A stretch of DNA of 26,425 nucleotides from IMG/VR virus record IMGVR_UViG_3300035396_000576, positions 1 to 26,425 of that record; one strand, 5' to 3'. Below the pieces are notes generated by a model. It had not been told where the DNA came from, searched no databases, and was given only the letters and a program-made list of their open reading frames with translations. Positions 2,846-26,425 of the stretch are shown here, piece after piece; within the stretch, counting starts at the first letter, position 1, and the number at the start of each line of letters is the position of its first letter. The stretch comes from a virus (Duplodnaviria; Caudoviricetes). The position numbers were made by a program, and so were the translations under genes.

Positions 2846-3574
2846 TTATTTCACATACCTTTGACGACTTCATAGCGTATTTTTATATATCATTTCTATA
2901 AGTTCTAGGAACTCATTTTTAGATAAAGTAGATTTTGCCTTATTACACCGCTTACAACAAGGAACTATATTATCTTTTTCATATCACCTACTATTGTCTA
3001 CCCTATCAATTCAATTATACTTATATACAGCTCGCGATGTTTTTATATTTGTCGATGATATTTGATGCCTTCAACAATAAATACATTCTTTTTGTGTTAT
3101 CTCTAAAAAGTCATCAAAAGATATTTCAAAATTTCTTCATTTATCATTAGCGTTTCTTTTATACCCTCTGTAAATCTGGTACGCTGGTGCTAATCATTCG
3201 GGCTTTCTTATGTTTTCTTTCCATAAACATCAACAACTCTTTATTATTCATCTTGTTAGTTTTGAAGAACTGACTACTTTAGTATTTCAGCAATCACATC
3301 TACATTCTCGATAGTATGTATCTTTTTCTTTTCTATCTAATTTTATTGCGGTTAATTTGTTAATTTTTTTTCATTTTATATCTATGATTGGAGATGAACG
3401 TTTACATCAACAGCTTACTGTTTGTTTGTTAATAAGATGGGAAGAAGATATAAGCTTTTCATTTCAACAATCACACAAACATTTCCAAAGCTTATTTCAA
3501 TTTTTTGTTAATCACTGCTGGTCTAATACTAATAATCTTCAGAATCTCTTCCATTTCAAGTCAAGTATTTTCAC
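2846..3574 (-). CDS. HNH homing endonuclease with two N-terminal W-x-C-x-CDCG...SCGC repeats (242 aa)
   Basis: GTG start. DLKWKRFGRLLVL...LWKCLCDCGN...SCGC, then a second repeat YWECRCDCGN...SCGC, then CIYCG...NGIDRVDNSRGYEKDNIVPCCKWCNKAK. Confidence 0.85.
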
Positions 3575-3642
3575 TTTATGTAGTAAGATATAAAAAATAA
3601 TGTTATTTTATATATACTTGACTACTTTATATTTTCAAGTGA

Positions 3643-5952
3643 TTATTTCGAGTATCTTGCACGGCTTCAAAGTGTATCTACCTGTACGTGCATTGCTATT
3701 TGTTCTAGCAGTGCATCTCAGGCGTATGTATCTTGTGCATCTGATGGAGTCCTTCTAAGATTGAATCAGATTTTATCTCATATTTGATATCATAGATTTG
3801 GCAATACTCACAGACTAATAATGTGATGATAGTATTGAGTGCTAGCTACTACGGTGTCGACTACAGAGATTGTTGTTTGTGCTGATGGTCATAATTGTGC
3901 TGGTGAATGTTCCCAATCAAAGAATCGTTTTACAGCTCAACTTCATGTCGTATTTGGTCTCCAATGTACATGAATCTCTATCACACTTCAGTACATATAA
4001 TCATGTGGTATTTCAAAGCTTCAAGATAATCTTTCTTGTGTTGCTCCTCAATCAAAGGCGTACATTTGTCTAGCTACTCATCATATTGTAGCTCCAACGC
4101 TATCAGGTGCAGTTGCTCAGGAAGCAGGTACAAGTATTGCAGGGTATTCATCTCTATAGCAAGAAGCATCACCATTAGCTACGTATGTTCAATCAGCTTC
4201 AAAACTTGAATAATTCACTGGTCATCATATACGAGCCGTTCAGGCTTGTATTCATTGTTGAAAAACAGGTACTCAGTTGATTACCGTTTGTGGTGTCGTC
4301 TGGTCTATTTTGAGAAAGTCTGATATTTTACTAGTAAAATCAAAGTATTTTCAAATGTTATTCCATACTGGAAATTGTCAGTCTAATGTTAATGGAGTTC
4401 AGTTTATATCTGAAAGTTCTTCTAGTGTTTTATGTCTTTGGATATTTACTAATATGCTACCTATTCAAGCACCTCATACAATAGCCACCGTTCAAACGAT
4501 GTCTGAATGGTGTGGTGCTGATGGTTCAATATTGGTTAATTGTCAAGCCACTGTTTTACTTACATAGAGCAAGTCTCATTCTGCCCAAGTAGTTCACCGA
4601 TCACCAGCTCAGCTATAGTTAGTTTTTATTTGTCTTACATATCATAATATCGTAACAAATCACTCATCATCATTAAGTATATCTTGTGTAAGTATTCAAA
4701 CAACCTTACTTGTAGAGTCAGAATCTGAACTTGCCAATAAAGCCTTTGGACGATTTCATTGTCTTCCAGAAAAATAAACAGGACTACCATTAGGGAGTGT
4801 TGAACCTGTTTTGTTTATGCATTTAATAAATAGCTCTTGTCAAATTTGTTGCATTACTCCAAAAGGCATACCCAGATCCATAGTTCAATCTGTACTATTC
4901 CACCTCATTTCTCATGGATTCAAGGCATCAACTGAGGCTGGTGTTTCGTCAAATACCAATGTATCTATATTGGAGTTGCTTCAGTCTGAATTTATGTAGC
5001 TTCAGGCAGGTTGTTTGCTATTAAAAAGATTCCAATCTGATCAACTCAAATATCAGTCTACTCACGCCGAAGCGACTCATAGCTTAGTTTTTATTGACGA
5101 TTGTGTTTCATCACCTGTATTTGTTCAAGAAACAAGATCCAAATATGATCTATTTGTATGTGTAATTGCTATCTTTTCGGCTGGTGTCACGAATACTCTG
5201 GTCAAGCTTTCTGTGATCTGGTCAGCTGTATAGTCACCACTCTGTGCAGAGATAGCTCAGGTTCTTCAAAATACTGAGACTACTCAGTTTGCGGTTGGTG
5301 ATCTCTCTCGGATAGTTCCATTGTATATCACAAAATCACCTATATAGAACTTTATAGCTCATGATCATAGGTTTTGTGTTCACTCTACGCTAGTCCTATA
5401 AGTATCTCACGTATCACCAGTTCAGTCAGCTAGGGTTGGCGTATTTGTCAATGCGTTCCATGCTCCTTTGTATTCCATTATAGAAGTAGGGAGTTGTGCC
5501 ATTGGCACCTTTCATCATGAGTCAAGCGAAGCGTATCAGTTTGCCACTCATCTATTTGCCACATTTTCTGGAGTAAATCAGAGTGCATTTTGCTTTGAGT
5601 TGAATGTATTCCAGTCCGCAGAAGACAACGCCCCATTTATGCTATTTGTCGCCAGTCATAGACTGAGAACTTGCCCTAGTATTGATAGTCAGTTTCATGT
5701 TCAGATTGTCACTGGATTGTGTAAGTCAGAAAGTTTCGCATCTACTTGTGCTGATGTATAATAATCTAGCAGTATAGCATCAGATTCAGTCTTTGTATAG
5801 ATATTACCAAAATAACCATTTCAAGCAGAGATGGAGTGTGGTCATAGGTTAACATCTTTGAAGGCACCAGTATATGGTACAAATTCTACAGGGATGTCTG
5901 CGAATTTGTATATGATTGGTTCTTCAGCCTCTAGCTTGAATTTTATATCCAT
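3643..5952 (-). CDS. Tail fibre / receptor-binding protein (769 aa)
   Basis: 2310-nt frame open with TGA=Gly. Fibre motifs include GVANGYASLDSGGKVP, YKGAWNALTNTPTLADG, VVSVFGRTGAISAQSGDYTADQI and a repeated DWN-x-FNSKQ. Confidence 0.8.
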
Positions 5953-5981
5953 CTCTATTTTATAAAAAAATTAAATCTGAT

Positions 5982-6344
5982 CTATACACTCTTGGGATAT
6001 TTATGTTTTACTTCCATTACTCTTGCCTTCATATCTTCCATATCCTGTCATCATTTCCATATAGCATCTAATTGGTCTCAAATACTTGGATATTCTGCAA
6101 GTCTTTTACTTTGATATTCATATTTTTTATAATTCAAATATTCATCATTATCTGATACCACCAGTTCTCATTCTACTATTTCAAATAAGCATCCAAATTT
6201 TTCGATCTTTTCCATATCAATATCGGAAATCTCAAATTCTTGTAAGTTGTCTTTCATTTTTTCGTAAGTGTCTTGTCTCCACTCGACCACTCATATGTAT
6301 TTTGTAGTTCAATTCTTTTCTTGTATCAGTGTGACTTTCTTCAT
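5982..6344 (-). CDS. Tail fibre-associated (assembly/chaperone-like) protein (120 aa)
   Basis: The C-terminus KRLAEYPSIGDQLDAIWK...VMEVKHKYPK matches the widespread phage R-xx-EYP-x-I-x-DQLD...VK-x-KYPK motif found next to fibre genes. Confidence 0.7.
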
Positions 6345-6366
6345 GATAATGAATTTTTATATAAAA

Positions 6367-7065
6367 TTATACAGACTCATAAAAATTACAAATAAGCGAG
6401 GATGAAAATGTACCTAGAACTGCTTTATAGTATTGATCTGGTAAAATCGGACAACTCAATGTCATCTGTGGAGTTTGAGAACTTGCCACTAGATGTCAGT
6501 AAGCCACTATTGTCGTTGGTGTTGAATTCGAGTCACTATAAATTCGTGCATCGTTTCAAGGATTAGAAGCACTTCATTGGAACGAGAAAACTAAAAGTCA
6601 TCACTTACCTGATGCTTGGTATGTTGTACCTGCTGTTTTTGGTGTTTTTGTATTATAGGAAATTGATGCTGATAATATAGCACCTCCTACAACATCGTAT
6701 CTGAAATCAGAAATAGATGTTATGACTCATCAAGAACAAACAACAGTAGCTAATCTAGCGTAGTCAGAATTCCACGTAGTGGTATTTATTTGTATTACTC
6801 ATGATCCATCTATCTGCACGTAATTTGTTGCGGAGTCTGTGACTGAAATATCTATTCATCAGGCGTATTGTCATATAATAGCACCTACTACATAGTTTCA
6901 TGCTCCAATATCTATTTTTAATGCTATCCCACTTATAGCAAGAAAGACTTTCAGTCTATCGTCTCAATTTGCATAAATATCGTCAATATCTTCATTGATA
7001 TCTTGCATTCTTGACGCCTGTAGTTCGTCTTCTGGTGATCGATTCTGGCTGTTTTTTCTTGGCAT
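6367..7065 (-). CDS. Tail tip or short fibre structural protein (232 aa)
   Basis: MPRKNSQNWSPEDELQASRMQDIN...NYVQIDGSGVIQINTTTWNSDYARLATVVCSGGVITSISDFR. Beta-rich and in tail context. Confidence 0.6.
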
Positions 7066-7075
7066 AGTTTACTTT

Positions 7076-7627
7076 TTAGTAGCTAAAGTTACGCTCGGGG
7101 AATATCAATTTCAGATGCAATCTCTTATGGTCTTTTATGGTCATAAGTCTTAAATTTTCAAGGTCATTATTTGCTTTATCAAAATCAATATGATGTACAC
7201 ATTCCTTTGATTTATCTATTTTTCTTCATATCTGTGTTTCTATCAAATGGATATGTTCACGTGCCCAATTTCATTCTCAAAGTTTTATCAAGATATATCA
7301 TTGTGCATTTTTTCTTCTAGTTCATATTTCTGTATAGTTTGGGTTGTCTTTTGATTTCCATATTATAGACATCTTATCCATAAATTCTTTAGAATGATTA
7401 TTTCATCTTTTGATTGCACTATCTGACATCTTTTTTCTAGATTCTTCAGAAAAAACGCCAGTCTTTCATTTATTCCATCATATTCTACCTTTGCAACTTT
7501 CAGATATTTTCTTTCTTTGTTCATCAGTAAAATGTTTTCATAATCTTGCAGGCTTTCTACCTTTACATCCTAAACGAATTTTTTTCTTAGATTCCTCTGA
7601 CATTTTAGATCATTTTCTCATAGTCAT
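7076..7627 (-). CDS. HNH homing endonuclease with NUMOD3 repeats (183 aa)
   Basis: NUMOD3-like repeats SEESKKKI, TDEQRKKISES and SEESRKKMS plus WNKGK. HNH core EHIHLIE..IGRK...VHHIDFDKANNDLENLRLMTIKDHKRLH. Confidence 0.9.
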
Positions 7628-7687
7628 ATTAGTTATAAATTAAATATGATTATGATACGTATTTTATTCTAAAACTCAAGTTAATCG

Positions 7688-8206: not shown

Positions 8207-8207
8207 A

Positions 8208-10877
8208 TTAGCTTGCAGAACTAAAAGAAGCTATTCAAGGAGATGTCACGGTCTCTACTGAGTTGTCTCTTACATAAAATCAAGCTAATCTTACGGTCGC
8301 CACCAATTCGTCTATCTCTATCTTCAAGTCGTAGTTTACAGTGTTTGCATTCGTAGTGAAGTTCACTGATTGTATGTTGAAATCTCCTACTACGTTTGGT
8401 ATTGTGAACGTTTGGGTTGCCAGAATTGTGTCGTTACTATCATACTCTCTTATATAGGCTTTTATTGTTCAACTTCAAGAAGTAATTGACAAATTTTTCA
8501 GCCAAAAAAAGAAATCAAAGTTCCTACTATTTGGTATTCAAGATTTCATCAGTGTGATACTTGATTTTTTTCAAGCCGTAGCGTATAGGTTCTGGAGTTC
8601 CAAAATTCTTCCCGTAGAATAATTTGAATCTGAAACAAACGAAGCCTGTCAGTCACCATTTGCGGACGTGATCATGAACCATCTATTTCCTGATTTACCT
8701 CAAATATATTGTGTGTTTGTAGATACTCCACTTTCATTATAGAACCAATAGAATTTATTGTACTTAGAACCCGCATAGTATGGTCATGTATTGATAGCTG
8801 GGACGATCATGTCGGCTATTGTGATGTCTTCGTCATCGTTTACTGGTATTATCACTTCTACACTATCGTCTATTAGTAAGTTAGATGATTTCTTGAAAAG
8901 TAATTGAAAGAATTCTACGTAGTCAAAGAATCTAGTGGTGATATCAACTTTATATGAGAATAGGTTTCAGATTAAACATTTTGTTGATATCTTTTGGACC
9001 TGGAAATACTTTGCAACTCCTCTTGCAGGATCATTTACATATACCATTTGTCAGAGTCCTATTCAGTTTATATCAGTAGTGAATGTATAGGATACCAATG
9101 GATCCTTTCTCATTGCTACTTCTATGTATGCCCTTTGCCTAGCAACCTCAATCGTATCTATATTTTTATCAATAATAATCTGACCGTCAAAAATTCAGTC
9201 ACCTCCTACCAATAGCTTCATTGCATTGATTGCGGTCTGGTCAGCGTATCTTACGGATATTGTTTTGTATGGATAGTATGTCCAGATGATCTCAGTACCC
9301 GATGCTACTACTCATGCACTGGCGTTCTTTACTACCTTTTCACTAAAATTATATATAAAATCTACAGTCGTAGGGTCAGTGATTCACTCTGGTCAGATTG
9401 TTTTTTCTACTCATCAAACAAAGATTTTCAATCATTGCAATATTACTCATCCTGCAGTTGTCCTTACTCATACTGGCTTATAATCAAGGTTGAATGATGT
9501 TTGTACTCAATCAGCTTTCCTTTTTTGGGTATAGAGTGCGTTCACTGGAGCTTCGTTTCACTCCACTAATTGTCTATTTGTGATCTGGCTTGTATCTATT
9601 TTTATATCCAAATCTGAGTACTTTCTTTCAGTACTGAGCGGATCAGTGTATAGTTGGAATGTACTGATGCCTTCACCGTCAGAATAATAATAATGCAAAT
9701 CTCTATCATAGTCTATGTACCAGAAATGATTCAGTTTTTTGGTGATATCTTCAAAACAGAAACTGACACTTTTCCCCTTGTAGCGGACCTGTGCAAATTT
9801 TTGTCATCATTTTTTGGCGTTCACCATGGTTATTCAACCAGTGGTTATATTAGAGTAGTCAAAAAGTACGTAATCTATAGCATCGGATCCTATGATTTCG
9901 TATTGCAACCATACCACTCCAGTCAATGTCGGACTTCATACTGTATTATCTGGACTGGCTATCTTGAAACTTTCATATAATCGTAGATCGTCTCGTGTAT
10001 TTCAGGTGTGGGTATTATTTCGTTCAAAATAATTGCTAGAATCCTGTCAGAGTCTGACTTTGAAACTTGTTATATTTATTCACTGGCCAGCTTTAGCTTT
10101 CCGCCAATAACGAAAATCTGAATAGCTTGTCAGATCAACACTGGTCACGGCTTTTGTCCATGTCGCAGTTCATGCTCATGTCGTAGTAGCTTTTTGGCAG
10201 AATGTTCACTGGATCCTATCAGCAGAATAATTTGTAGTTGAATTTCCAACGCCCGCACCAGTCATAGAACTACCGAAATCAAACACATCTGTTTGGGTAT
10301 CGTTTGCCACAAAGTTGTATATCATTCTCGCCAATATTTCTCTAGTGTACATATCCTGGTATGTATCGATCACAGTCTTTCTATCGATGAATTTCTCAAA
10401 TGATATTATCTGGTATGAGTACCTTGTATCGTTTGTAGACTTTGACATCAGCTCCTGGTCTACTCTATCTATTACTCAACTGAAAAATCTCTTACCACAG
10501 TTTGTCTTTATGGTATAGTCTCTTTTTAGGTTTGTTGAAAATGTTATTTTTTTGGTGACTGGATCAACGTCACTTATGATTTTTTCTTCCTGGTATCAGT
10601 TCACGTCGATAACAAATTTTAATCAGATTTGATACTTTTGTTCTATGTCGTATACATCGTTGAAGTACATGAAATTTTCCCCAACATTTCATTGGATAAT
10701 ATTGTATATTGTATCTCGGATGTATACCACTGATTCTTGTGATAGATATACGTTATTTAGTGAGAATGAACATGTATTTTTGTTATTGTTCAAAGCCTCT
10801 TGCTTGCCAAGAGTTTTCATGACTAAAGCTTCGGAGTAGTCAACTCAGTTATTGATTATTTGTATTCATTGTCTCAT
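8208..10877 (-). CDS. Large minor tail (hub/tail tip) protein (889 aa)
   Basis: 2670-nt frame open with TGA=Gly directly after the tape measure gene. Contains FWYIDYDRDLHYY and DTSQITNRQLVEG, and includes track fragment 10206-10448. Confidence 0.75.
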
Positions 10878-12692
10878 TTAGAATGCTTCAATCATAAATT
10901 GTCTCCTGAATTGTCCAACCATTTCGTTGGCAAAGTTCAATGCTGTCTCTCTATCAGTTCCATATAGGTTTCCGATGTTTATGGTCACTCCTTGTTGTCA
11001 TCTCATATCTACAGGGATTCTTCTACCATCTGGCAAAGGTACCACCGCTTCGTTCATGCCACCTTCTCAGATCATAGCCATTGTAGGAGACGTCACCATT
11101 CCACCATTTGCGAATGCTGGCATTTCCAATCTAGGGATAGATACGTTTCAGATGGTTCATACATTGAACCCTGGGATCTTGTTTGCATATCCTATCATTT
11201 TATTTATTCAGCCTATTGTCGTATTTATCAGTCACTCTATCACCGCAATTACCGCATTTACTGGAGCCAATACTATCTTGATTATTCATCAAAACATTTG
11301 CTTGAATCATGCCCGTATTGCAGTGGTTCCTTCTCCATTGATGAAGGCAGTGATCATTTTAGTACCACCGACTATTATATCTTTTATTCACCCAAAAACA
11401 CCTCACACATAGGTTTTTATAAAATTCCATGCAGTGGTGAATAGTCATTTTATGATCTCAAATGAGATTCATAGATATATTTTTATAGCTTCAAAAGTTA
11501 CTTGTAATACTGTCAAAAATCAACTAAAAAATTCTGAATTAGTTATTCATAATGCAGATAGAAATTCGTTCCAAGCCGATTTCAACGCCGTCACCACACT
11601 CATTACGACTTCTTTTATTCCAGTCCAGGCTATTTGTATTCATTGCCAAATCTCTTCTACTATTGGCATTGTAGCATCTCTTATTCACAAGAAGTTTGTT
11701 GCCCATGCAGTGGCCAGGAGAGCCACTCAGGCGATCACCAATCATATAGGAGAAAGCAGTGCGGTCACTCATGCCACTATCGGACCGATTGCAAGTCAGA
11801 CCATTCATAAAACTGTAACCAATCATGCTAGTCATCCAGCCATTAGAAATATATTCTTTGTCATTTCTGGGTTAGCTGCAGTCCAGTCAATGAATTTCTG
11901 TATTATAGGAGTTATCGTCTGCATTAAAGAAGTTAGTATTGGTGTCAAAGATTGTCAGAGACTCTCTGATAGATTCCCCATCTGTACTCTAACTTTAGCC
12001 ATCTGTCAATCAAAACCCTGTAGAGCTACTTCATTTGTATATTTTAAGTTTTGTGCAAAACCTTCGTTTATTGCTTTCACCTTTTCCATTTCTGATCAAA
12101 ATTCTATCATTTTTTGTTGTGCATCAGTGAATCTGATACCACTCTTTTCGAGTATTCAAAATTGTCAGTTCAACGCCTTTGCAATCATATTTGCAGAGTC
12201 AGCCATTTGTTCTCAGCTTGCAGACACTCAAAACTGGTTGACAGAAAGATCCGCAAGACTTCATCATAATGCTTGTACGGCTTTATTACTCAGTCAAAAC
12301 GTAGATAATTGAGCAAGTCACATCTTTATATTGTCTCAGTCTAGGACTCACTTTTTTTCTAGTGTATCCGCTAGATCGGATGTGGCTTTGAGTTGTTCTT
12401 TCGTTGCCTTTGTTACCTTTAGCACTGCATGTTCCAACATTATAGATGATTTCTGTGCATCAGCGTAATCGGCAATTGATTTAATTGCAAAAGCTGATAT
12501 AGCACCAAAAGCTACAATTCAGTAATTTCTCATATTTGTGAATGTCTGTTTATTCCTTTCTCATCGTGCTGTGATCTTATCTCATGAGGATTTGATTGTT
12601 TTTGTAGTATCGTCAACAGATTTCTGTACCCCTTTAAGTACCGATGTGGCATTATCCTCAGCTAGTACCTCGAGCTTCATAATATCTGACAT
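10878..12692 (-). CDS. Tape measure protein (604 aa)
   Basis: Ala/Gly-rich helical protein: IAKALNGQFGILEKSGI, amphipathic repeats, and a C-terminal PAFANGGMVTSPTMAMIGEGGMNEAVVPL. It follows the tail chaperones. Confidence 0.9.
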
Positions 12693-12693: not shown

Positions 12694-12952
12694 CTATCTC
12701 TTTGTTAAATCGTTAAAAATCTGATCCTTTTGGCTTGCTATTTTATCTTCTTGTTGTCTAATATATTCTTGGTTGCTTTTTTCTGTTAAATATAGCCGAC
12801 AATCATTACGAAAAGGCAGAGTAGTTTTCATCAAATCTTTTTCGGATCGTCAGAAATTTTCACAAAGAACGATATTCATGTATTGATCAAACCATCATAG
12901 TTTTATTTCTTTAGTCTTTCAAGATATTAGTTCGCCTCGGTATTTTTTTTTT
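12694..12952 (-). CDS. Tail assembly chaperone gpT-like extension, reached by -1 frameshift
   Basis: The -1 frame after the A10 run reads KKKYWGELISG...LCENFGWSEKDL...LTKR-TAG and ends 1 nt before the tape measure ATG. Confidence 0.75.
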
Positions 12953-13302: not shown

Positions 13303-14769
13303 TTAGGCCGTATAGTATGTTCATGCGTTGTCGTTTACTATCTCTATTTGTGTAGAGTAGTTTGTTGTGAATGAATATTTTGCAATACCAAGTATCTTTT
13401 CCTTTATGACTTCACCTGATTGATCAGTGATTTCATATGTTTGTGATACTACTTCAGGCAATGTTATTCTCATTGAGTAGAATGCGTTGTTCGTATCAGT
13501 TGGAGATACCACTTTTGGTATTTCCAAATCTATAATATATGCGAGTGCTGATGTTTTTCTTTGTGCATCTCTATCTTGATTATTTTCGTAAGCTTTGTTG
13601 ATTTCTACCTTCACATCCAATCAAGTTGGAGTTGCTAGATTCTTCAAGTTCTGTACTGATTCAGCAACCTTCTTGTCGAAAGTCAGATTTATGTTTTCAA
13701 AATCTATAGGATCTGATGCCAATGCCAATGCGATAGTTGTTCATCTTCTTAATGTTACGTTTGAGAAAGAGAAGAAATCTACTGGAGTGATCACGGCTGT
13801 TTGTTGCACCAATTCAACCTTATTCTCATTCGCCACAGTCATTGCGGTGGAGGTAATAGTATCGAATCAGATTACATCATTTGCATCGTCAACATATCTT
13901 ACGGTTACATCTTCAGTTGCTCATAGGTTATTTGATAGTCTTACTATATCAGTAGCAAGTACACCCTTCACAGTCCTTTCTCCAAAAAACATCATAGAAA
14001 TCTGATTGATTGTTCATCCTGTACCTACTCCAGATGAGAGCGTACATGATAGATCAACAGTTGTACCGTTTACTACGGTCACTACTTTCCAGTATCCATT
14101 GTATTCACTTACGCTATTTCATGTCACTTTTACTAGATCGTTCACTGCTAGTCAGTGTGTTGCAGATACTACCCTCAAAAGTCAGTTTGTAGGAGTTGCA
14201 CTCGTTACTGCTTTCGTCACAGCCTCTACCTTCTCATTTGCTATCAAGAAAGCGACATCGAACATTCATTGTCCTTTGACTTCGTTTTCCATCTTTACGA
14301 TAGCGTTTGATTCTATTCAGAGTTTTGTGCTGTTTGGCACTATTCAGTACGTTCTTTGTACTATGATATTTGTCTTATCAGATGATGATTCACATCAACC
14401 TTTTTTGTTCTCCATAGTCACTGATTTGTATCCACATACTTGATCCATCAAGGTATGTTTGTATACTGATCCATCCAATAAAGATGAGATATCAGCAGAC
14501 GTCAAGGATCCTAACAGCATATAAAATCGAGCCAAAGAGTTCTTTGAATCTACTTCAACATTTACTGATCATTCAATCTTGTTTGCTCATTTCGCCATGA
14601 ATACGACGTTATTCAGCGTATTGAAACGACTCTCAGACTGGATGTTCTCAATGTTTTTACTCAATGAGTTCTCCATTTCTGGTATAAATTTATTAGGGAT
14701 TCTTGGAGTACCGTTTGTGTTTTCTAATATCCAGGCGGTATAGACCGCTTTTGAAGAAACTGCTGACAT
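13303..14769 (-). CDS. Major tail (tube) protein with inserted beta domains (488 aa)
   Basis: Joins track fragments 14587-14769 and 13321-13620 in one frame. KIEGSVNVEV...MLLGS...VYKHTL is tube-like. Insert THGLAVNDLVKVTG....YNGYWKV. Confidence 0.75.
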
Positions 14770-15034: not shown

Positions 15035-15553
15035 TTAAAATTGATTTCTTTGTATTTGTTTGTTGAATATCCTGATTATCATGTCCGCTCTGTATCATAC
15101 GAATCATGCTCAGGATAGGTTCTGGTATTGCACGCTATCCATATAGAGATCATTTCACATTGTACATCAGTCAATCACTATACATCAAATATTTTGGAGT
15201 ATTCATGCAATGCTGTATGGGTTATAGAAACAAGTTGTATCTGATTTTCCTTCCATGATCTTTTGTACCTGTTTTTTCACTTTTACTACTCACTGATCCT
15301 CCGCTCAGTAGAATTGCTTTGTTGCAATCACCACACTTATTTTTATTCTCCGAGTACTTTCGTAGTATTGGTTCATTTTAGACAAGGCAGAGTCCATTCC
15401 TTCTATAATTATTGCAGGCAGGTTTTGTTGTACGTAGTTCATCGGATCTCAGTCAAACACAGTTTCTATCAAACTCAAATCAGAGCCTTCAGGTGAGGCT
15501 TGTACTTTTGTTTCAAATAATCATTTCAAATAGGTTGTTAATACTGGTAGCAT
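15035..15553 (-). CDS. Putative tail terminator/completion protein (172 aa)
   Basis: ...VFDGDPMNYVQQNLPAIIIEG... The LPAI motif and synteny in the neck module support the call. Confidence 0.6.
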
Positions 15554-15570
15554 GGTTTTTTTATTTATGG

Positions 15571-16050
15571 TTAAGATTTGCGAGCGTTCCATATACCTAT
15601 TTCGTCATTGAATTGTGTTTGAATAATTCTTACAACCTCAGCTTTGGTTCTAGGGTTGAACTCAAACATTGCTCTATGTTTTGATCCTTTTCCATCCTGG
15701 TGGTATATTGCATACTTGGCGTTCATGACCAACGCACAGCTATATCTATTTTTTATCTTGGTGATGTTATCTTGTAGGTTTCATGTCCAGCGTAGTATTC
15801 CTGGTCTATTTGGTGACTTCTTATAGTATCATGTTCTCCTTGCTCTGGCCTTTGATGTAGATACTGAGAGTGGAGCTCGTTTTGGGTTGATTACCAACTG
15901 TCATCACTCGACTTTCATGTTGTCGTTCTTCATCTCATCTATTTTATCAAGCACTCAATCTCGATAGTTTTCAAAGTTCAATCATTTTTTGATGAAGTCC
16001 TCGAATTGTCTCGAGAGATTTCATCATGATACAAGACTCATTTTTAGCAT
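15571..16050 (-). CDS. Virion morphogenesis / neck protein, Mu gpG-like (159 aa)
   Basis: NPKWAPLSVST (W=CGA), ILRWTGNL (G=TGA) and KYAIYHQDG match the family motifs WAPLS, L-xx-TG-x-L and YA-x-x-HQ-x-G. Confidence 0.85.
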
Positions 16051-16072
16051 CAGAATCTTTTTATTTATAAAA

Positions 16073-16564
16073 CTACCATCTATCACTTGTCCTAAAGTCT
16101 CTAGGTACACAGTTATTATCGAATGAACTTGATATACTTGATGGAGGGGTTTTGTTTGGTGATAATGGTAGGAGATCAAACTCGTCATTGTTTACATCTA
16201 ATAGTCTAGTATTTCACTTTCTCAAATCATCTAGTATTGCCATTTGCTGGTCATACTTTTTTCAGGATCCATTATCCTCTTCTAGTCTTTGTGATCAGTA
16301 TCATTCGTTCATGATATACGATGAAGCCAATAGAATCTGACAACCTCTCAATATTGCGAATGATAGACTCTTCATGAATCTCTCTTCAGTGAAAGACTTC
16401 AGGTCATATCTTCATGCAACATACGTCCAGACGTCTCAGCGAGCTTTCTCCCTATATGTCTCTATGTACTCGTCATCTATATCAGTATTTCAAGTTAGTC
16501 ATGCAGACTTTCTTATTTCTTTTACAGTGGCTAGGTTATCTCATCCTTTGAATGTTTGGCTCAT
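16073..16564 (-). CDS. Head-tail adaptor, Mu gp36-like (163 aa)
   Basis: LATVKEIR...AGRYDL...KKYDQQMAILDDLRKGNTRL, located downstream of the capsid gene. Confidence 0.7.
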
Positions 16565-16582
16565 CTGATTTTCAGAAATAAT

Positions 16583-16620: not shown

Positions 16621-16637
16621 ATTTTGGATATTCAAGA

Positions 16638-16958: not shown

Positions 16959-16977
16959 CTTACATGTTTTTTATATA

Positions 16978-17012
16978 ATAAAATAGGGTACACCCCAAAG
17001 GATGCACCCCCT
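16978..17012 (-). terminator. Rho-independent terminator after the major capsid gene
   Basis: Minus strand GGGTGCATCC-TTTG-GGGTGTACCC followed by TATTTT. Confidence 0.6.
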
Positions 17013-17018
17013 TAGAAT

Positions 17019-18026
17019 TTAGCTAATTACAGTAGTGATCAATCTAGCACATTTCTGATCGATGATGTGCATATCGTATTCATCCTGTACAATTACCAAT
17101 GAGTCCAATGAGTTTTTCAATTGCTCAGTCAATGGATAAGCGGCAGATAATACTCTTTGTGATCCTCTTCTTGTGAAAGTTTTTCCGAATCATTTTGAGT
17201 AAAGTCCTGGTGCTTCATTGTAACACATGAACACTTTCTTTTCTACCAAGTATGATAGAGTTCCTTCAAGATCACCAGCTCCATCCCATTTCTGAGCTTC
17301 AGATATAGTTATTTGGGTTCAGAGAGCGTTCTTTAGGTTTTCAGTCAATGATGGTATAGTTGGAGTAGTAGTATACTTGAATCTATCAATCACTTTCGTG
17401 TTGTTAGTGATAGCAACCATTACATCCAAAGACAATACTATTTCTGTAGGCCAGCTTCAACATTTGTCTTTCAATAGTTTTGCTTGTGCATACAAAGTTG
17501 ATATTGGATCTGAATTTGATACTCCAGAAGTCATACTATCGAATCTATCAGTTCCTGACAACGCAACATTATTTGTGATAACGTTCGAATCAAAAATTTG
17601 TGATAGACATGCGTATTCTTTTGCCAAATCGTATGAACCTTTCAAGATGAACATTTTGTCTCTTTGTGCATCGATTGGAGCGTCAGCATTTTCGATATCT
17701 GTTTTGTAGATATCAGTATACAATGCATGTTCTTCAAGAACCCGTTCATCATCCAATCTTACTCAAAATTCGATCTTGTTTGCTCAACCTTTCCAACCTT
17801 TTCTTGTTGTATAGATTGCCATTGCTTGCATTCAAAGATTTGCGATTTTACCCTTTGCCTTTTTCACAGCAACGATTGGGAAAATCTTTGTCCATACATA
17901 CTTGCTATCATCATTTTTGTAAGCCAATAACATTGACTGCAAAAGCTCTGGTATGTAGGCATCTTGGAAGTCACCAGCAGTAAATAAGTTCGTTCCCTCA
18001 GGAAGGGAGAATTGTTTTGCTAACAT
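17019..18026 (-). CDS. Major capsid protein, HK97-fold (335 aa)
   Basis: Joins track fragments 17832-18026 and 17457-17756 through six TGA codons. Motifs KIFPIVAV, EEHAL, SDPI and FGKTF, and the position after protease and cement genes. Confidence 0.85.
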
Positions 18027-18067
18027 TATGATTTTTTAATAAAGATATAAAAAAGTTTTCAGGTCGA

Positions 18068-18481: not shown

Positions 18482-18510
18482 GATTGCTTTTTAATAATGA
18501 TATAAAAATA

Positions 18511-19623
18511 TTACTTTTTCTTTTCGATCTCGTAGCCATCCTTCAAAGCTTCATACGCTTTGTTGAAGTCTACATTCTTGTCTTTTGCGTAGTCATTACA
18601 GATTTTATTGAAAGCTGATTCACTCACTACTTTCTTTTTTCAATCTGTAGACATTTTTTCTTCTTCCTTGTCCTCCTTTTTAGCAAAATTTTGTGAAATC
18701 TGACCATTAGTCAAAGTATCAACAACTTTTTGGTAGTTAGAGAATAGTTTCTTAACTTCTTCCACTTCTTCATCGTCCAATTTAGAGAAAGCTTTTAGAA
18801 CTTTTTCAGCTCCTACCTTCTCTTCTTCAGCTTCTTGATTGAATGCGTGGATTGTTGAGAACTTTTGTACTATTTCTGAAAATCTCTTTCCAGCTTTAGC
18901 CTGTGCAAGTTCTTCTTTCATAGCTTCTTTTTCAGGATCTGAGTACTTGTTCAAAGTAGCTTCAGTTTCTGCTTGAAGTTCTTTCTTTTCATCTTCAGTG
19001 GCTTCAGAGAAAGTTTTTGTTAGTTCAACTTTTTCATCGAAGCTTAGAGCCTCTTTAGAAGAGAACTTTAATAGTAAATCTTTAAGCATGACGGTTTCAT
19101 TTTTAGTAGATAAAATTGTATTTGTTTTTGTCTCTTCGGAAGGGTCGCTTGCAACGATTTTGTCCATACCATTGAAGTACGGGTAGTTCGTTAAGGCACC
19201 GCCTACTAGGACGTTTTCAAATCGTTTCATAGTATCAGGATCCTGATACTTATCAGATAGCTCTGCGGAGAAATATTTGTAATGTTTCCCGTTCAAGTTA
19301 TCAGCACCGTTCTTTGTAAGTTCTATGTCAGCCCAGAGTTCGTCTCATTTAGAGTACACTTTTTTGATCCATGCTTGAGCAGCAGTTCTATCGTGTTCAA
19401 GATTGATTGGGATCTCGTCTTTCCTTACGTTGTTTTCAAAATTCCTTATAACATTATTGAAGTATTTCTCATCTATCAATATTTTACCATAGAATGGATG
19501 AGTCCTATTGGCATACTTCAAAATCTGAATAGGGATAATGTCCCCTTGCTTTAGATCTTGTTGCAATGCGAAGATTTTTATTTCAAAATGTTTAACGTTT
19601 TTTGATACTACTTTTTCTGGCAT
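18511..19623 (-). CDS. Prohead protease/scaffold, Mu gpI-like (370 aa)
   Basis: IPINLEHD..AQAWI...LWADIELTKNG...YKYFSAEL...LVGGALTNYPYFNGM followed by an acidic helical scaffold. Joins two track fragments. Confidence 0.88.
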
Positions 19624-19672
19624 TTTTTGTTTGAGAGATGTAAAACATATTCTATATAGTATATTTTGGCAA

Positions 19673-22225
19673 TTATTCAATAGATTTTTTCAATCTATCT
19701 ATTATTTCCTGGTTTTTTTCTTTCCTTTTTCAGTTCAGACTTTCATTCTTTTGCATTCTCCAGTCTATCTCTTTTGTGATCTGTGCTACTGCTGGTGAGT
19801 CTTTTGATAATACTGGAACCTTCAATTCTTCCTTGCTTGTGATCGTATCCTTCACTGGTATGCTAGAAGATACTTCAGTATAATCAGGCTTGTATTCTTC
19901 ATCGTCGTTTATGAACACCCGCATTGATCTACAATGTATATGTTGAGGCGGTGAGTAGTTCTTGTAATCGTCAGAGTCCACCTTCACCACGGTACCATCT
20001 AGGGAAAGACATCTATTTGAAGTCCTTCAGTCTATGATTGCGGAGTACTGAGCACCATATATCTTGCTTGCGTTTGTATACGCTACTGATTTCCTTCAAG
20101 AGTTGAACGCTTGATTGATTCAGATTGTAGATACTATTCAGAATGCTTGATCAAGGTATGGTTTCACTGCTTTCTTCACAGACACCACAACGCCTGAGGA
20201 TGGTGTGTTCTTCAATCAGTCGTTCTTTGTGATTGCTGTCGCTATTATAGCTTTTGTATCAGTAGTCACCTTGCTTATTATTCATTCAGAAACGTTGTCA
20301 GCTTGTATCTTGATCACGTCTTTCAGATCTTTTTTGCTTTCTGGGATCTGTACCCCTATTTCTCTACTCGCTTCATTCTTTCAGTAGTCAAAGTTCTTCT
20401 TGTATGCTAGTGTCACCATAGAAGATATCTCAGCACCGTATTTTGCGGTCAACGCAGATATTGCGGTCATATCGTTTTTTTCTATAAGGGTCTGGACTTG
20501 TGCAAGTAGCTTATTTGTCATTTCATCAGTCACCTCTGAGTATTGTTTTCTAAGTGAGTCAGTCTCTTCGTTCAAATTATCTTTGATTGATTTGATTGCT
20601 ACCCTTCTTTCAGCGAATGTCAGCGGTCTCCAGAATCCATCTTGTATAGGATCAGAGAAGTTTCTTTTTCAAACATCGTCTGATTCTTCTAGTCAGTCAA
20701 TTTGGTGTTGTATGATCGATTCATGGTCAAAGTCTATTCAAGAGAAGTTTATATTTTCACATCCGCAATCTGTATGTTTTTTTGCTTGCTCTTTTGCTAG
20801 TTTATCAGCCTCTTTTTTGGCTTGTCTTTCAGCTTTAGCAGTCTCTACTTCATCTTCTTCTACTGCTGGAGCCATATCTGGACTAGCTTGTTGCTTGGAT
20901 TCGTTGTATTGCTCTTCGGATATCATAGGTAAATGCAATAACTCTCTTACATATCTTTCAGTGTCGTAGTTTGCAGTAATTATTCCACCGCCTACCAACG
21001 CAGACATAGTAGAAGAGAATTCTGATGGATCCACCAATCAGATTTGTCCGAACTTCACCTTTGGCATTCTCTTTGTTTCTCAGAAATTCAACGCCACTAT
21101 TTTTGGGATGAGATATTTGTTGATTACCTCCATGTCTTTTTCTAGCAATCACTTTACGGCTTCAAAGAAAAAAGCCGTAGACTGTCAAGCCATACCGTAT
21201 GATCCTTTCTTGGACTTTCATAGATACAAGAATTGTTGGAAGAATATATCGTTGATATTTTGTGCATAGTGCTGGATAGCATCCTGGAGCTTGTTTGCGT
21301 TATCACCAATATTGGTGTTCATCCAATCATAGCCTACCAATGAAGCTCAGGTCGCAGGATCTATTTGTTCTACAACGTATCAGCTTTCTAGACTTCTCAT
21401 GTTCTCAGCTATGCTCTTGTATTTCTCTATTTCATCATCAGTCGTTCATTGTGGGACTTTCACTTTCAATGGTGGTATTGCCAACCTTTCTTGCAATACT
21501 GCATGATAGTTTTCAAATTTATCTTTGAAAAATCGGTCTTTCGCTATCTTACGATATAGTGATCGACCTTCGTAGTTTATTCATTCAGAGTTGATATTGA
21601 AAAGTATCAATTTATTTGATGGTATATCTATAGTGTTCTTTCCTTCGTTCGCTTCAGGATCGTCAGTTTCCTGAGTAGCTTTCGTGTAGTACGCTATTTG
21701 TTGTATTCATGGTTCTCATGTAGAAGTCAACCATTTGAAAACAGTGTCGGCGTAGATTCTTGTCAACTGTGGATAGAATCAGTCATCTTTCCTTTCAAAA
21801 TATAGTTCGAATAGACTGAATCAGTCCCTTATGTATAAGTTTATATCTTCAATCAGACCCTTGAATCATCTATCGAGATTATCGAACAACGCTTTTTCGC
21901 AGAACTTCGCTATTGCCACATCTTTTGCGTTTGGTTCCATGCCTTCATCAGTGTATGGATCAATGAAAAAGTTTGTAGATGTTTTCATGAGGGTTATTGC
22001 GTTTCTCATTTGGAACACCTGGCCATCGTTGTCCATTCTCATAAACAGCTGATACTTCTCGTATTTGTTCTTGAATCTGTTTGAGTATTCTTCAAACAAA
22101 AATCCTACATTCTGTTTGGTTCAGTATGTAGACTCACGCACAAAAAGAACTTTAGTTTTTTCCAGCTCTTCTTTGTTGATTGAAAACCTCTGGAGAATAG
22201 TTTTGATTGTTTGTGAGATATTCAT
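19673..22225 (-). CDS. Portal protein (Mu gp29/DUF935-like) fused to a MuF/SPP1 gp7-like head morphogenesis domain (850 aa)
   Basis: One 2553-nt frame joins four track fragments. Portal motifs GFSLFE, NYEGWSLYRKIAKDWFFK and GSYGMA. MuF motif YSAIIDGRTSNRCLSLDG...PPQHIHCRSMWV. Confidence 0.85.
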
Positions 22226-22229
22226 TTTG

Positions 22230-23825
22230 TTAGAAATCTTTAGTAAAAAAGCTCTTTTTAGGTGAGTATTTATCTATAAGCTCTTGTGCTTTGCTTTTTG
22301 TTCTTTCTTCTCATGGTATATCATTTTTTGGTTTCGATTCAATAGATTTTGTGTTTTCTTTTTCTATTTTATCAAGATGATATTTGAATTTGAGAATTAT
22401 TGCGGTGAAAGAGTCGACACGATCATCATGCTCAACGTTTGGAAATTTTATTAGTTGGGTTATGAACTTTTGATCGATATCTGGTGAAAATTCAACGGCT
22501 CCGCCTTCGAGATAAGGTTGGCATTCTCTCAATCTACCTATTTTACTTTTCCTTCATGGATCATATAGATGTATTATCCAATTAGGGTGTTTTGTCAACA
22601 GATATTTTCTCAATGTCATTCAACCAGCCTTGTTTTCAATAATAAATTCTGGTTTATCATACTGGTCGTATAGTCGACTGAGTCTTTCATCTATTCTTGT
22701 CAAATCTTTTTGCCTTCATGTCAGCTCCTCCGAGTGTCTCATATTCCACTTTCATGACTCCCTTATTCTAGTACCTATTGTGATACCTATCGGATCTGAT
22801 TTGTCTTTCTCAGACTCTCAGGAGTCGATCGATATATATGTTTTGTCTCAGTATGGGATCTTGTGATACTCCCTATATCTGATCCATTGCTCTTCTATGA
22901 TAGGTACATCGTTTCTCATTGGGATAAGCATATAGTTTGCTCAGTACCAGTCACGTCCTTGCTCTTCTCTAATATCTTCTAGTGATTGGACATAGTTCTC
23001 TATACGATTCTTGTTTATCTTGTCAGCCTCAGCTCTTGTTTTGACGAACCTATCTGGTCGGTGGAGTGTTCAGTCCTCTTTCATAAATCTCGTGTATACC
23101 ACCCTTCGCTTTGGGTTGTCTTTCAGTTCCTCTGCTAGTCTAGGTAGTACTCAGTCCTCATTGATAGTGTTTCAGAGTACTATTTTTTGTCAGAGTGATC
23201 CACCAAAGATTGCACCTTTTATTTTGTTGTATGTCTTTGTGATTATTCTAGGGTTTTGTGTATTCTCGTCATCGTCTATATCATCCAAAACATCTAAATC
23301 TGGTCTCAGTGACTGGTCTCATAGATAGATATTGAGTCATCTTGTAGATTTCTTGACTGAGTTGGCTTTTACGACCACACCGTTAGTAGAAGTGAATCAT
23401 GAAGTCCTTTTTTGTTCTTTCTGTTTGAAGAGTGCATCCATCACCCTATCGTTGTAGTATAGTCTTCAATAATCATGCACAAAAATACTATCACTAGATC
23501 AGATTAGCATATTTGATATGGATGTGATATTATCCTCTGCTTTGTTCACATCATAGGAAGTCCACCTGATGAATTTGTTTCTCTTTGTCGCTATCCTTTT
23601 ACAGAGTCGCTTTCTCAGGATAGACGTTTTGGCACAACCTCTATATCAGAACCGTATCAGATTTCATCAGTTATCTATCCAATCTAGTATTTCTTGATAG
23701 TCAGTCGGTGTATCAAAAAAATCATAGAAGTAAAAATCATTCCAGAGAGTTGGATCGTCAGGAAAAATTATTGATCTCAAAATACTATCATCTTGTATCT
23801 CAGCAATAAGTTTTGGATCTATCAT
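22230..23825 (-). CDS. terL: Terminase large subunit (531 aa)
   Basis: Walker A GYRGCAKTS, STRG...RPDLDVLDDID (Walker B), coupling motif VLGNT, HWPDRF and nuclease motif FPNVEHDDRVDS. Confidence 0.93.
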
Positions 23826-24364
23826 TTCTTCTTTGATTTGTATTTCTCTAAAATAGCTTGTTGCTTTTCATCGAGTTTTTTCTCTTCAGGGACGGGAGTG
23901 AGATCTAGTATTGTTCTAGTTGGCTCTCATTTTTCTGTTTTTACTATTTCCCGAATATTTCTAAGCTCCTTTGATATCCTTGTGGCATTTTTATTTACTT
24001 TATATGTAGTATTCCCATCTTTATCCTTTGATATTATAGTCATGTCATTCAATACAATCTTTCAAATATCCATTGTTCTCCTGTGCATTTCGTTCAATTC
24101 TTTTATAGATGGTTTGTAGATTTTTTCAGCCACTTCCTTCTCTAATTTGAGTACCGCTCTCTGCATTGCTTTTTCTTGGAACTTCTTTTTCTTCTCAGCT
24201 CGTCCTCTAGTCTGAACTTTCATTGCACCAGAATATCCTAGTTGACCTTTCTTTCACGGTTTTACTACTCACTTCTTTCTTAGGAAAGACTCTGCATATA
24301 TTTCGTCATCTGTCAAGTATTCTAAAAATAGAGTCTCTCGATCATATTTTCATTTTTGTGGCAT
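23819..24364 (-). CDS. terS: Terminase small subunit, putative (181 aa)
   Basis: MPQKGKYDWETLFLEY...TRGWAEKKKKFQEK, helical, and overlaps the TerL start. Confidence 0.7.
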
Positions 24365-24397
24365 TTCTATAAGTTAAATTATAAGTTAAAATAGAAG

Positions 24398-24934
24398 TTA
24401 GCCTCTTACTTTGCATTCGTAACCTAATCATTCAATATCAGATTTTACAAGTTCAGCCTCTCACATATCACTACAAAATACCGTAACAGTTATCGGACTG
24501 GGTTTGTTTTCCTCCTCTTCTTCTTCCACTTCCTCATCCCATATTGATAGTGGGACTTCATATTCTGGAAGATCCATAGCCTGTATCTCACCCATAGTGA
24601 AGTTTTGTTTTATGATTTCTATGTCCCATCTTCAATACTCAGTATTATCCTTGAATGCTCTTTTGTTCATAAGCTCTTCGGATATATTATCTTCTATGTC
24701 TATCCACTCATCAGGTATTTCATCGTATCATAAAGCTATGAGTCCTTTGAGTCTCTGGTTTCATGCGTAGACAATCAGAATCTCTTTTTTTCATTGCTTG
24801 GTCCTATTCACGAGCATTTTTCTTTTCTCCAAAAACTTAGGATCCTCTTTTAGTGATCTTTTCAATTTCTCTAGATTTTCATCTGTTATAGATCTTGGGT
24901 TTTTATCCCAGAATGTTAGTAGGTTTGTTTTCAT
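24398..24934 (-). CDS. ParB/Srx N-terminal domain protein (178 aa)
   Basis: KNPRSIT..LEKLKRSL...YAGNQRLKGL..LG...KDNTEYGRWD matches ParB-like motifs commonly found upstream of phage terminases. Confidence 0.85.
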
Positions 24935-25118
24935 TCGATATTTCAAAAAAAATAAATCTGATTAAATCGTCTATAGATATTATTACTTTCTTTCCTTTGA
25001 ATTCCATCTCTATTATTTTTCTACGTTCCAAAAGTCTCTTGGCTGTTTTCCAATTGAGTTCATTTTGTATTGCGTAGGCTAATAGTGATTTGTAGTATTT
25101 TAATGTGTTTTTCTCCAT
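24903..25118 (-). CDS. Small basic hypothetical protein, possibly DNA-binding (71 aa)
   Basis: Intact ORF, basic, co-oriented, overlapping the ParB-like start. Confidence 0.5.
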   Translation of the reverse strand: MEKNTLKYYKSLLAYAIQNELNWKTAKRLLERRKIIEMEFKGKKVIISIDDLIRFIFFEISNENKPTNILG

Positions 25119-25181
25119 TTTTGGGATAGTTTGCGATGTAAGTTGTTATTTGTATAATCATATAGTTTTCTTTTGCAATAC

Positions 25182-25212
25182 AAAAAAACGACCCAAATGG
25201 CAGGGTCGCTTT
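25182..25212 (-). terminator. Rho-independent terminator
   Basis: Minus strand GCGACCC-TGCCATTT-GGGTCGT-TTTTTT after the Dps-like gene. Confidence 0.75.
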
Positions 25213-25231
25213 CTTGCTTTTATATTATACA

Positions 25232-25666
25232 CTACACACCTAATTCAGCGTTGTTATTAAATACGAACATACGCAATTCTTTTTTATAATCGATCAGCTC
25301 AGTGTTCAACACACTATCAAACGGTATCACTGCGGTCTCTCGTGTTCATAGGTACATCATAAGATAGTCCATAGCCTCTTTCATCATTTCTTTCTGTATG
25401 TCTACGTTCTTTTCGATCTCATTGTATGATACTATTTTGCTACTGATCTCTATCTCAGCGTATTGCACTGGTAGGGTGATTCATTGCACCTTTGCACTCT
25501 CCATCAAAAAATCTAGCTTTCAGTCTGCTCGAGTGTACACCTCACTTAGGAATGGATGGTAGTACATCGATCACTTACCTGCACAGTTTACGTGAAGGTT
25601 GTGAGTGTTGTCTCTTAATACAAACAGGGTAGAGAATAGTTGGATGTAGATGTCTTTGAATTCCAT
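25232..25666 (-). CDS. Dps/ferritin-like protein (144 aa)
   Basis: RDNTHNLHVNCAGKGSMYYHPFLSEVYTWADGKLDFLMES aligns by eye with the Dps pattern H-N-x-H-W-N-V-x-G...H..F.E.Y.......D...E. Confidence 0.7.
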
Positions 25667-25705
25667 CGGATTATTGTTTAGTATGTAAAGGTTTATATAT
25701 GTGTA

Positions 25706-26005
25706 TTATCTTTGTGAGTTCAAATTCAATAGATAATCGAAAGTAATCTGATTTCCTTCAGCGAGCATGGACTCTATTACGTGTTTGTTTCCTGAGGTTA
25801 ATCTATCTACTTCTCTGTGACACTCGATACTGCACACCATGATGATATTATTTGGATCGTACTTGTATTTCTTGTGCATACCGTGACCCAACACGTGAGC
25901 GAAGCAGAACGTCTTTGATTCATATATGAAGGTTCCACACACTTCGCATTGGTGATATCTTGACGTCCATACTTTCCAGAATAGTTCTTTCAGACTATTT
26001 ATCAT
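25706..26005 (-). CDS. HNH/NinG-like zinc-binding nuclease (99 aa)
   Basis: CEVCG...FAHVLGHG...KYDPNNIIMVCSIECH. ATG at 26005 is preferred over the TTG at 26017. Confidence 0.7.
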   Translation of the reverse strand: MINSLKELFWKVWTSRYHQCEVCGTFIYESKTFCFAHVLGHGMHKKYKYDPNNIIMVCSIECHREVDRLTSGNKHVIESMLAEGNQITFDYLLNLNSQR

Positions 26006-26288
26006 CCTTCTTTTCAAGTTTATATTTTTGAATCATTGTTGCAAGATATTCTTTGAGATTCATTGGCTGTGCGTTCAATGTAGGATTCTTTAGATCTCGA
26101 TGTTTTAGTACAAACACTACAGATTCAAAAAATTCTTTTGTTCATTTCCCTTTGATCTCTTCTATGGAGTGGAAAACATCAGACATCAATACATCGAATA
26201 TCCTTGTTTTGTTCAACATCTTTTGCACTCTGCACATATTCACTAGAAGGAATTTGTTCAGTTCTTTTTCAGTAGATTTTTTAGTCAT
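25995..26288 (-). CDS. Hypothetical protein (97 aa)
   Basis: ATG 26288 to TAG 25995 with one TGA read-through, overlapping the next start. Confidence 0.6.
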
Positions 26289-26313
26289 AGTAATATATTT
26301 AGTCAAGTAAAAT

Positions 26314-26425
26314 CTAGTCTTTAAATTTTCGCTTATATCATAGTATATATTTTTGTTTTCATCTACATACTGCTGATATACAAGTAGAACTACATCATAA
26401 TTCTCTTTCTATGTCTCTTTGGCTA
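26314..26425 (-). CDS. C-terminal NUMOD1 domain of a probable homing endonuclease (partial)
   Basis: SQRDIERELGCSSTCISAVCRGKQKYILGYKWKFKD*. All three Gly are TGA and the W is CGA. Confidence 0.8.

Follow-up and report, generated by a model that had tools for sequence, protein, structure and literature searches.

The window, by which we mean the whole stretch of DNA analysed here, is 26,425 bases long with 35% GC and is the entire virus record IMG/VR IMGVR_UViG_3300035396_000576; our subject is the way in which its genes read the codons CGA and CGG. By their PHROG and Pfam matches its genes include those for a terminase large subunit (TerL), a fused portal-MuF protein, a Mu-like protease, the major capsid protein and the tape measure protein, and also for a minor tail protein, for HNH nucleases and for a protein resembling ParB. 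TerL, portal, protease, capsid and tape measure are grouped in one module, which identifies the window as a fragment of a tailed phage (Caudoviricetes). The genes are carried by the minus strand and stay open only with TGA as a sense codon, and open reading frames (ORFs) of at least 100 codons cover 33% of the window under translation table 11 versus 96% under table 25. Since, in addition, glycine ranks first at TGA in a profile likelihood over 50 sites and is the top partner of TGA in related phages, TGA can be taken as a glycine codon. A preliminary description of this DNA had proposed a second recoding on top of the first, with CGA and CGG read as tryptophan, adopted by the virus from a host belonging to the Absconditabacterales (SR1).

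In 34 ORFs with 8,521 codons we counted TGA 358 times, TGG 70, CGA 36 and CGG 13, and CGA or CGG is present in 24 of these ORFs. The same ORFs hold 21 CGT, 5 CGC, 205 AGA and 58 AGG codons, so that arginine is mostly written AGA/AGG (263 codons) and sometimes CGT/CGC (26), as had been described. If CGA and CGG are counted as tryptophan, they make up 41% of the tryptophan codons in the window, and 43% and 54% in two relatives. The nine codons cited as examples (eight CGA/CGG and one TGG) were all found at their positions on the minus strand. The range first given for the pattern, 2948..26331, is too narrow, as the pattern spans the entire window, also to the left of 2948.

The evidence that carries the codon reading comes in the first place from two IMG/VR relatives, G001 (38 kb, 91% complete) and G002 (42 kb, 100% complete), whose terminases are about 65% identical to that of the window. 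Proteins were aligned to these genomes with CGA and CGG masked as X; a further record (L001) with a protein 100% identical to the window belongs to the same genome and was excluded from every swap count. A metagenome scan returned one copy of the window genome (L003) and 22 distant matches, none of which was used, no relative was found in a TerL scan of genome contigs, and two capsid matches at 22% from a search of GenBank phages were not used either. Among the 49 CGA/CGG sites of the window 34 could be aligned. Of these, 22 have TGG as their counterpart in one or both relatives and six have nothing but CGA or CGG, an arginine codon occurs opposite none, and the remaining six correspond to E, K, Y, Y, T or M. 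Counted by alignment, CGA stands opposite TGG in 16 of 42 and CGG in 10 of 17, neither ever opposite an arginine codon. The exchange is seen also in the other direction, CGA/CGG being the counterpart of window TGG at 7 of 31 sites (G001) and 13 of 42 (G002), while AGA, AGG, CGT and CGC of the window are never opposite CGA/CGG (0/156 and 0/207, respectively). At CGA/CGG sites the relatives have TGG versus arginine codons 12 to 0 times (G001) and 14 to 0 times (G002), and at arginine-codon sites 2 to 88 and 1 to 109 times (Fisher p 7e-14 and 1e-17, the two relatives not being independent of each other). As judged from these alignments, the correspondence between CGA/CGG and TGG is far beyond chance. 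If CGA meant arginine, changes from CGA to AGA or CGT would be silent and need one step only; none is seen, and the two-step change to TGG is common. CGC stands opposite arginine codons in five of seven changed alignments. When the remaining codons were compared with those of the relatives, no further codon change came to light; AGG is opposite lysine 25 times and arginine 22 times there, profiles rank arginine first for it, and in host genes it falls in arginine columns 106 times.

A second line of evidence is given by distant database homologues of TerL, the portal and an HNH gene, from which we dropped those with at least 45% identity or more than 3% tryptophan (1 of 119 for HNH, 6 of 19 for the portal and 51 of 151 aligned for TerL), keeping 118, 13 and 100. 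The mean share of tryptophan in the homologue columns is 0.37 at 11 CGA/CGG sites (arginine 0.06), 0.28 at 14 TGG sites (0.05), 0.00 at six CGT/CGC sites (0.32) and 0.01 at 70 AGA/AGG sites (0.33). The preliminary description had spoken of family-conserved tryptophan sites; this is right for six of the 11 testable CGA/CGG sites, where tryptophan is the top residue, and comparable TGG sites behave similarly (6 of 14). In a profile likelihood similar to that of Codetta, tryptophan ranks first for CGA, with a log likelihood ratio (ln) over arginine of 8.7 on six window sites and 21.0 on 12 sites when the relatives are included, and for CGG, with 9.5 on three and 31.6 on eight sites. The homologue columns at these codons are thus not predominantly arginine, the outcome that would have spoken against the proposal. 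Arginine ranks first for CGT, AGA and AGG, and for CGC, with three sites only, lysine precedes arginine. Taken with the exchanges above, CGT, CGC, AGA and AGG are, on alignment grounds, still arginine codons in the window.

We also compared PHROG scores under table 25 and with CGA/CGG translated as tryptophan. The scores rise for TerL (phrog_38, 124.1 to 135.0 bits), the HNH gene (phrog_374, 121.6 to 129.0), the minor tail protein (phrog_13892, 160.1 to 166.0), the tape measure (phrog_1535, 83.9 to 87.3) and the gene cut by the window end (phrog_20162, 17.6 to 24.3), and the neck protein, with no PHROG match under table 25, reaches phrog_26 (E 3.6e-5) once CGA/CGG are taken as tryptophan. Other families move in the opposite direction, as reported below, so this comparison is mixed and the test a weak one.

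For the host side, genomes titled SR1 or Absconditabacteria were found with a published SR1 primer (PMC4192840); the SR1 order is here the order of G004 (RAAC1 SR1), which includes G005-G008, and the sister order is that of G030, which we infer to be Gracilibacteria. Valyl-tRNA synthetase (ValS) was collected from 50 of 141 genomes of the SR1 order and from 70 of 121 of the sister order, keeping in two ORF picks (L143 and L240) that look wrong or partial. In the SR1 order CGA falls 187 times in tryptophan columns and never in arginine columns, and CGG 29 times and never, with at least one such site in 46 of the 50 genomes; in the sister order the counts are 1 and 178 for CGA and 3 and 36 for CGG. 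In the ValS genes that contain CGA, its reading as tryptophan separates the two orders. This tally repeats, on more genomes, what is reported in PMC8629427. The share of conserved tryptophans written CGA/CGG in ValS of the SR1 order (L159-L188, L229-L248) goes from none to most, with 14 of 16 in L176 and L177. In a low-GC clade of the order of G030 (L194, L197, L208 and others) CGA is gone from ValS, and CGG is in a tryptophan column in three genomes; this clade may be an intermediate stage of the codon change. Terminases found inside genomes of the SR1 order have 16 aligned CGA/CGG codons, nine of them in tryptophan columns, five in F/Y columns, two in others and none in arginine columns. Since 14 of 16 are in tryptophan or aromatic columns and none in arginine ones, phages of this order probably share the usage in general. 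Prophage-like regions of three SR1-order genomes (G329, L278-L279; G453, L281-L282; G447, L283-L284) share genes with the phage group at 23-52% identity, namely replication, exonuclease, amidase-like or terminase genes.

G004 has tRNAs with UCG, CCG and UCA anticodons, the three that the preliminary description had suggested looking for. By our own reading, following criteria in PMC8629427, tRNA-UCG and tRNA-CCG carry G73 and U20, like tRNA-Trp(CCA), whereas tRNA-Arg(CCU) and tRNA-Arg(UCU) carry A20; tRNA-UCA shows the glycine pattern. tRNA scans found no tRNA gene in the window, in G001 or in the complete G002, which supports decoding of these genes by host tRNAs and agrees with the suggestion that the phage adopted the reassignment of its host. 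Near a prophage terminase of a sister-order genome (G076, L124 16055-16128) ARAGORN predicted a tRNA with a TTA anticodon.

A link to the SR1 order is found also in a gene of G002. Its cold-shock gene (L030 5313-5528) lies on the strand opposite to the phage genes, and the 11 best matches of the protein among 401 genomes of the class all belong to the SR1 order, and to one part of it, with 66-73% identity; the best match outside reaches 51%. It was likely taken from a host. One 44-base spacer of G464, from a clustered regularly interspaced short palindromic repeat (CRISPR) array with a 35-base repeat (L286, C25 48-530), matches G002 at 38 of 44 bases (6 mismatches), in a repetitive stretch of a replication gene; as a host link this is only a hint. 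The spacer search covered G002 1-20000 and G001 19001-38258 in addition to the window.

We then considered the sites gene by gene, all on the minus strand. TerL (22230..23825) has CGG at 23652 and CGA at 23607, 23106, 23058 and 22674. Position 23058 is a tryptophan site in 84 of 95 distant homologues, as had been claimed; tryptophan is present at 23106 in 34 of 94 and at 23652 in 34 of 81, both being TGG in G001, and 22674 is TGG in G002. In the portal fused to a MuF-like domain (19673..22225; PF06074 and PF04233), CGA at 21533 faces tryptophan in 11 of 13 homologues and CGG at 19919 in 10 of 13, with TGG in G001, again as described, and CGA at 21563 is TGG in G002 and V/I in distant homologues. 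This fusion is one 850-residue ORF, likewise in G001, and many database homologues have both domains. The HNH endonuclease (2846..3574) contains two Cys-rich repeats, in which the pairing of a TGG (3485, repeat 1; tryptophan in 97 of 116 homologues) with a CGA (3308, repeat 2; 90 of 115) was borne out; CGA 3032 and CGG 2948 are in variable columns and have no tryptophan support. It is one of four HNH/NUMOD-type genes (with 7076-7627, 25706-26044 and 26314-26424), and those at 2846 and 7076 have no counterpart in G001 or G002. The last one, NUMOD-like/HNH (26314..26424; PF22083 below cut-off), is cut at its C-terminal end by the window end and has CGA at 26329, the cited site for which the score increase is given above; contig depth in run X1 goes up at 26285-26425, as for a repeated element. 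Of the sequencing runs listed for this DNA none is of RNA, one contains it in full and may be its source, and contigs compared with the window added no evidence on the code.

Among the structural genes, the neck/tail-completion protein (15571..16188, its true start probably further in) has CGA at 15961, TGG in G001, and at the cited position 15877, CGA in both relatives. The probable tail chaperone part (12694..12879), a small ORF before the tape measure, has CGA 12847 and CGG 12796, both TGG in G001 and G002, and the probable small terminase (23819..24364), upstream of TerL, has CGA 24338 and 24200 and CGG 23951, all three TGG in G002. Both cited sites (12847 and 24338) hold in this way; the labels of the two genes come from their position, with no family match, and a homologue of the small terminase adjoins TerL in a prophage-like region of G447. 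In the large tail-region protein (8208..10877) CGA 10716, 10020, 9993 and 9981 and CGG 10101 correspond in G002 to three TGG and two tyrosine codons. The tape measure (10878..12692) has CGA 12564, TGG in G002, and CGG 11313; the probable major tail protein (13303..14769, by position and size) has CGA 14527, TGG in G001 and CGA in G002; and a head-tail region protein (15035..15592) has CGG 15350, TGG in both relatives. The major capsid protein (17019..18026, phrog_1005) has CGG 17742, TGG in G001; conversely, where it has TGG, at residue 192, the two relatives have CGA. In the head maturation protease/scaffold (18511..19680; PF10123, phrog_328) CGA 19222 is CGA in both relatives, and in the minor tail protein (3643..5952) CGA 5308 and 3925 and CGG 4597 are unaligned to the relatives. 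The other genes are a putative DNA-binding protein (25232..25666), with CGA 25529 and 25340 each TGG in one relative, and proteins of unknown function at 25995..26306 (CGA 26097; TGG in G001, CGG in G002), 1515..1883, in the virion region (CGA 1584; TGG in G002, CGA in G001), and 625..1401 (CGA 1285 and 1132, the latter opposite TGG in a G329 homologue).

Three kinds of alignment evidence, namely the swaps with relatives, the distant profiles and the terminases of the SR1 order, thus agree, and we regard it as nearly certain that the phage reads TGA as glycine and CGA/CGG as tryptophan; that this code is combined with an SR1-order host is in our view very probable. Several points weigh against this reading. 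Fifteen of the 49 CGA/CGG sites are not alignable to the relatives, and at five of the 11 profile-testable ones another residue is on top. Translation as tryptophan lowers the scores by up to about 3 bits for phrog_1084 (54.8 to 52.9 for the gene at 1515..1883), 3636 (34.2 to 32.2, the DNA-binding protein), 328 (65.7 to 65.0, the protease), 241, 3322, 3118 and 5417, and a weak Pfam HNH match disappears. Concerning the host, the cold-shock gene sits in G002, outside the window, and no CRISPR spacer to the window (1-6600 and 6500-26425) was found in the 141 SR1-order genomes with the top two candidates per genome scored, since none of the 20 + 6 short matches checked lies within a repeat array. 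Terminase relatives at about 30% identity are present in both orders and so do not pick the host, and ValS of 30 of the 70 sister-order genomes has no CGA and does not show how they read it. The narrowing to Absconditabacterales is therefore favoured by the ValS tally and by the cold-shock gene of a relative, but it is not proven.

This last point leads to the alternative that the phage has the same code but a host from the sister order (probably Gracilibacteria), namely from its low-GC clade, in which CGA hardly occurs and might also mean tryptophan. TGA-rich prophage terminases about 31-34% identical are found in G030, G076 and G334, the ValS genes without CGA and the three genomes with CGG in a tryptophan column fit it, and CGG is given as tryptophan in some Gracilibacteria in PMC8629427. 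However, the phage has 42 CGA per 10,000 codons (all ORFs) and 35% GC, and these hosts have about 25-30% GC in ValS and avoid CGA; moreover four of their five terminase loci have no aligned CGA/CGG, and the cold-shock gene speaks for the SR1 order. We consider such a host improbable. It is also quite improbable that CGA/CGG are read ambiguously, in part as arginine and in part as tryptophan. This could be suspected from variable columns in which no residue is more common than arginine (HNH CGG 2948, 16 of 114; TerL CGA 22674, 6 of 61), but the latter site is TGG and TTT in the relatives, no exchange with arginine codons occurs at the 34 aligned sites, and none of 216 host CGA/CGG codons in tryptophan or arginine columns of ValS falls in an arginine column.

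The phage might instead enforce the recoding by a tRNA or synthetase of its own while its host reads CGA/CGG as arginine, as suggested by the window being only a fragment and by known phages with stop-codon suppressor tRNAs. Yet the nearly complete G001 and the complete G002 are without tRNA genes, early genes use CGA/CGG just as virion genes do (33 of 44 and 35 of 44 minus-strand ORFs), and ValS shows that there is a group of hosts with precisely this code, so that we hold this to be very unlikely. CGG is edited by C-to-U change to a tryptophan codon in plant mitochondria, and one such edit would turn CGG into UGG here as well; but 36 of the 49 codons are CGA, which RNA editing cannot explain because one edit gives UGA, glycine in this phage, and the likely hosts have Trp-type tRNA-UCG and tRNA-CCG. 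Editing is accordingly extremely unlikely.

With an SR1-order host as the preferred reading, the window phage would infect SR1 bacteria and be translated by host tRNAs under the doubly altered code of the host, with tRNA-UCG and tRNA-CCG of the host reading the phage CGA and CGG as tryptophan. These two tRNAs are most likely charged by the tryptophanyl-tRNA synthetase, as we infer from their Trp-type identity features and the missing arginine feature A20. During long residence in such hosts phage arginine would have moved to AGA, AGG, CGT and CGC, and CGA and CGG would then have become ordinary synonyms of TGG.

The host code itself, UGA as glycine together with CGA/CGG as tryptophan, was predicted computationally for Absconditabacteria by Shulgina and Eddy 2021 (PMC8629427) and restated later (10.64898/2026.04.02.715157, PMC13092985). 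The phage has the same three codon changes, arginine mainly as AGA and low GC, the difference being that bacterial genomes were studied there and here a virus without tRNA genes. Its CGA frequency equals or exceeds the highest host values, given as less than 37 per 10,000, although these were measured differently, in Pfam-aligned parts. The same source predicts that two tRNA-less phages follow the AGG-to-Met change of recoded Bacilli; they too would follow a sense-codon change of the host without a matching tRNA, but the codon and the host are other ones and no stop-codon change comes on top. The code, like the adoption of such a change by phages, has thus already been published. Code-25 phages of Absconditabacteria/Gracilibacteria (Liu et al. 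PMC10746230; Borges et al. 10.1101/2021.08.26.457843; RSA-ATP1, 10.1101/2024.03.08.584096) are likewise tailed, with genome-wide TGA as glycine and a host inferred from the code; they are treated under table 25 only, CGA being absent from the three main texts and CGG from the two searched, and RSA-ATP1 carries four tRNAs, unlike the lineage of the window. Stop-recoding gut phages (Lak, crAss-like; suppressor tRNAs) also have a non-standard code, but it is unlike that of their host and recoding concerns part of the genes, whereas here it is genome-wide and matches the host code; neither the own suppressor tRNA nor the confinement to late genes of code-switching phages is a feature of this lineage. 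Our literature search, with subscription papers mostly outside its scope, found no report of CGA/CGG as tryptophan in a phage and nothing relevant on tryptophan insertion (proteomics, tRNA charging).

Codon use also differs by gene class. TGA makes up 36% of glycine codons in the probably abundant virion genes of the window (13303-14769 and 17019-19680) versus 64% elsewhere (p 4e-6), and in the matching genes 15% vs 65% in G001 and 18% vs 47% in G002; the genes avoiding TGA are capsid, protease/scaffold, the small gene between them and major tail, which suggests translational selection against the recoded stop codon. The share of CGA/CGG among tryptophan codons in early vs virion blocks is 0.56 vs 0.33 in G001 (p 0.012) and 0.63 vs 0.46 in G002 (p 0.051), with rough gene calls, early blocks at 15000-25700 and 5800-19300, respectively, and p values uncorrected for several tests.

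The result is expected, because a phage that relies on the tRNAs of its host has to obey the code of that host; the finding is of real use as a host marker and as a correction for annotation. Table 25 alone, as had been stated, mistranslates these phages, placing arginine at 41-54% of their tryptophan sites. The database terminases of this phage group (P0001-P0007) have tryptophan where the window has glycine, and the DNA of P0002 (G001) has TGA there, so that they are mistranslated twice, with W for Gly and R for Trp. A wrong code is thus harmful to annotation, as in the case of the neck protein, which gains a family only under the right code. CGA as tryptophan is a marker that needs only sequence, and no CRISPR data, to distinguish phages of the SR1 order from other TGA-recoded phages. 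Support for the change in SR1 has so far been computational only, and phage genes that swap CGA/CGG with TGG add separate evolutionary support. The finding also bears on the claim that phages of the candidate phyla radiation meet no host-translation barrier (PMC10746230, whose main text treats TGA only). Tentatively, and with more doubt than confidence on our side, the CGA/CGG change could be a second, overlooked wall of host range, with the lineage tuning its recoded codons by gene class. If such a wall exists, SR1 phages must clear arginine from CGA/CGG and would be untranslatable in other bacteria, including the TGA-recoded sister order, and "code 11-compatible" phages assigned to Absconditabacteria by TGA alone would be mis-assigned unless they avoid arginine CGA/CGG. 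If the tuning is true, the avoidance of TGA in abundant virion genes and the preference for CGA/CGG in early genes would be responses to the tRNA supply of the host.

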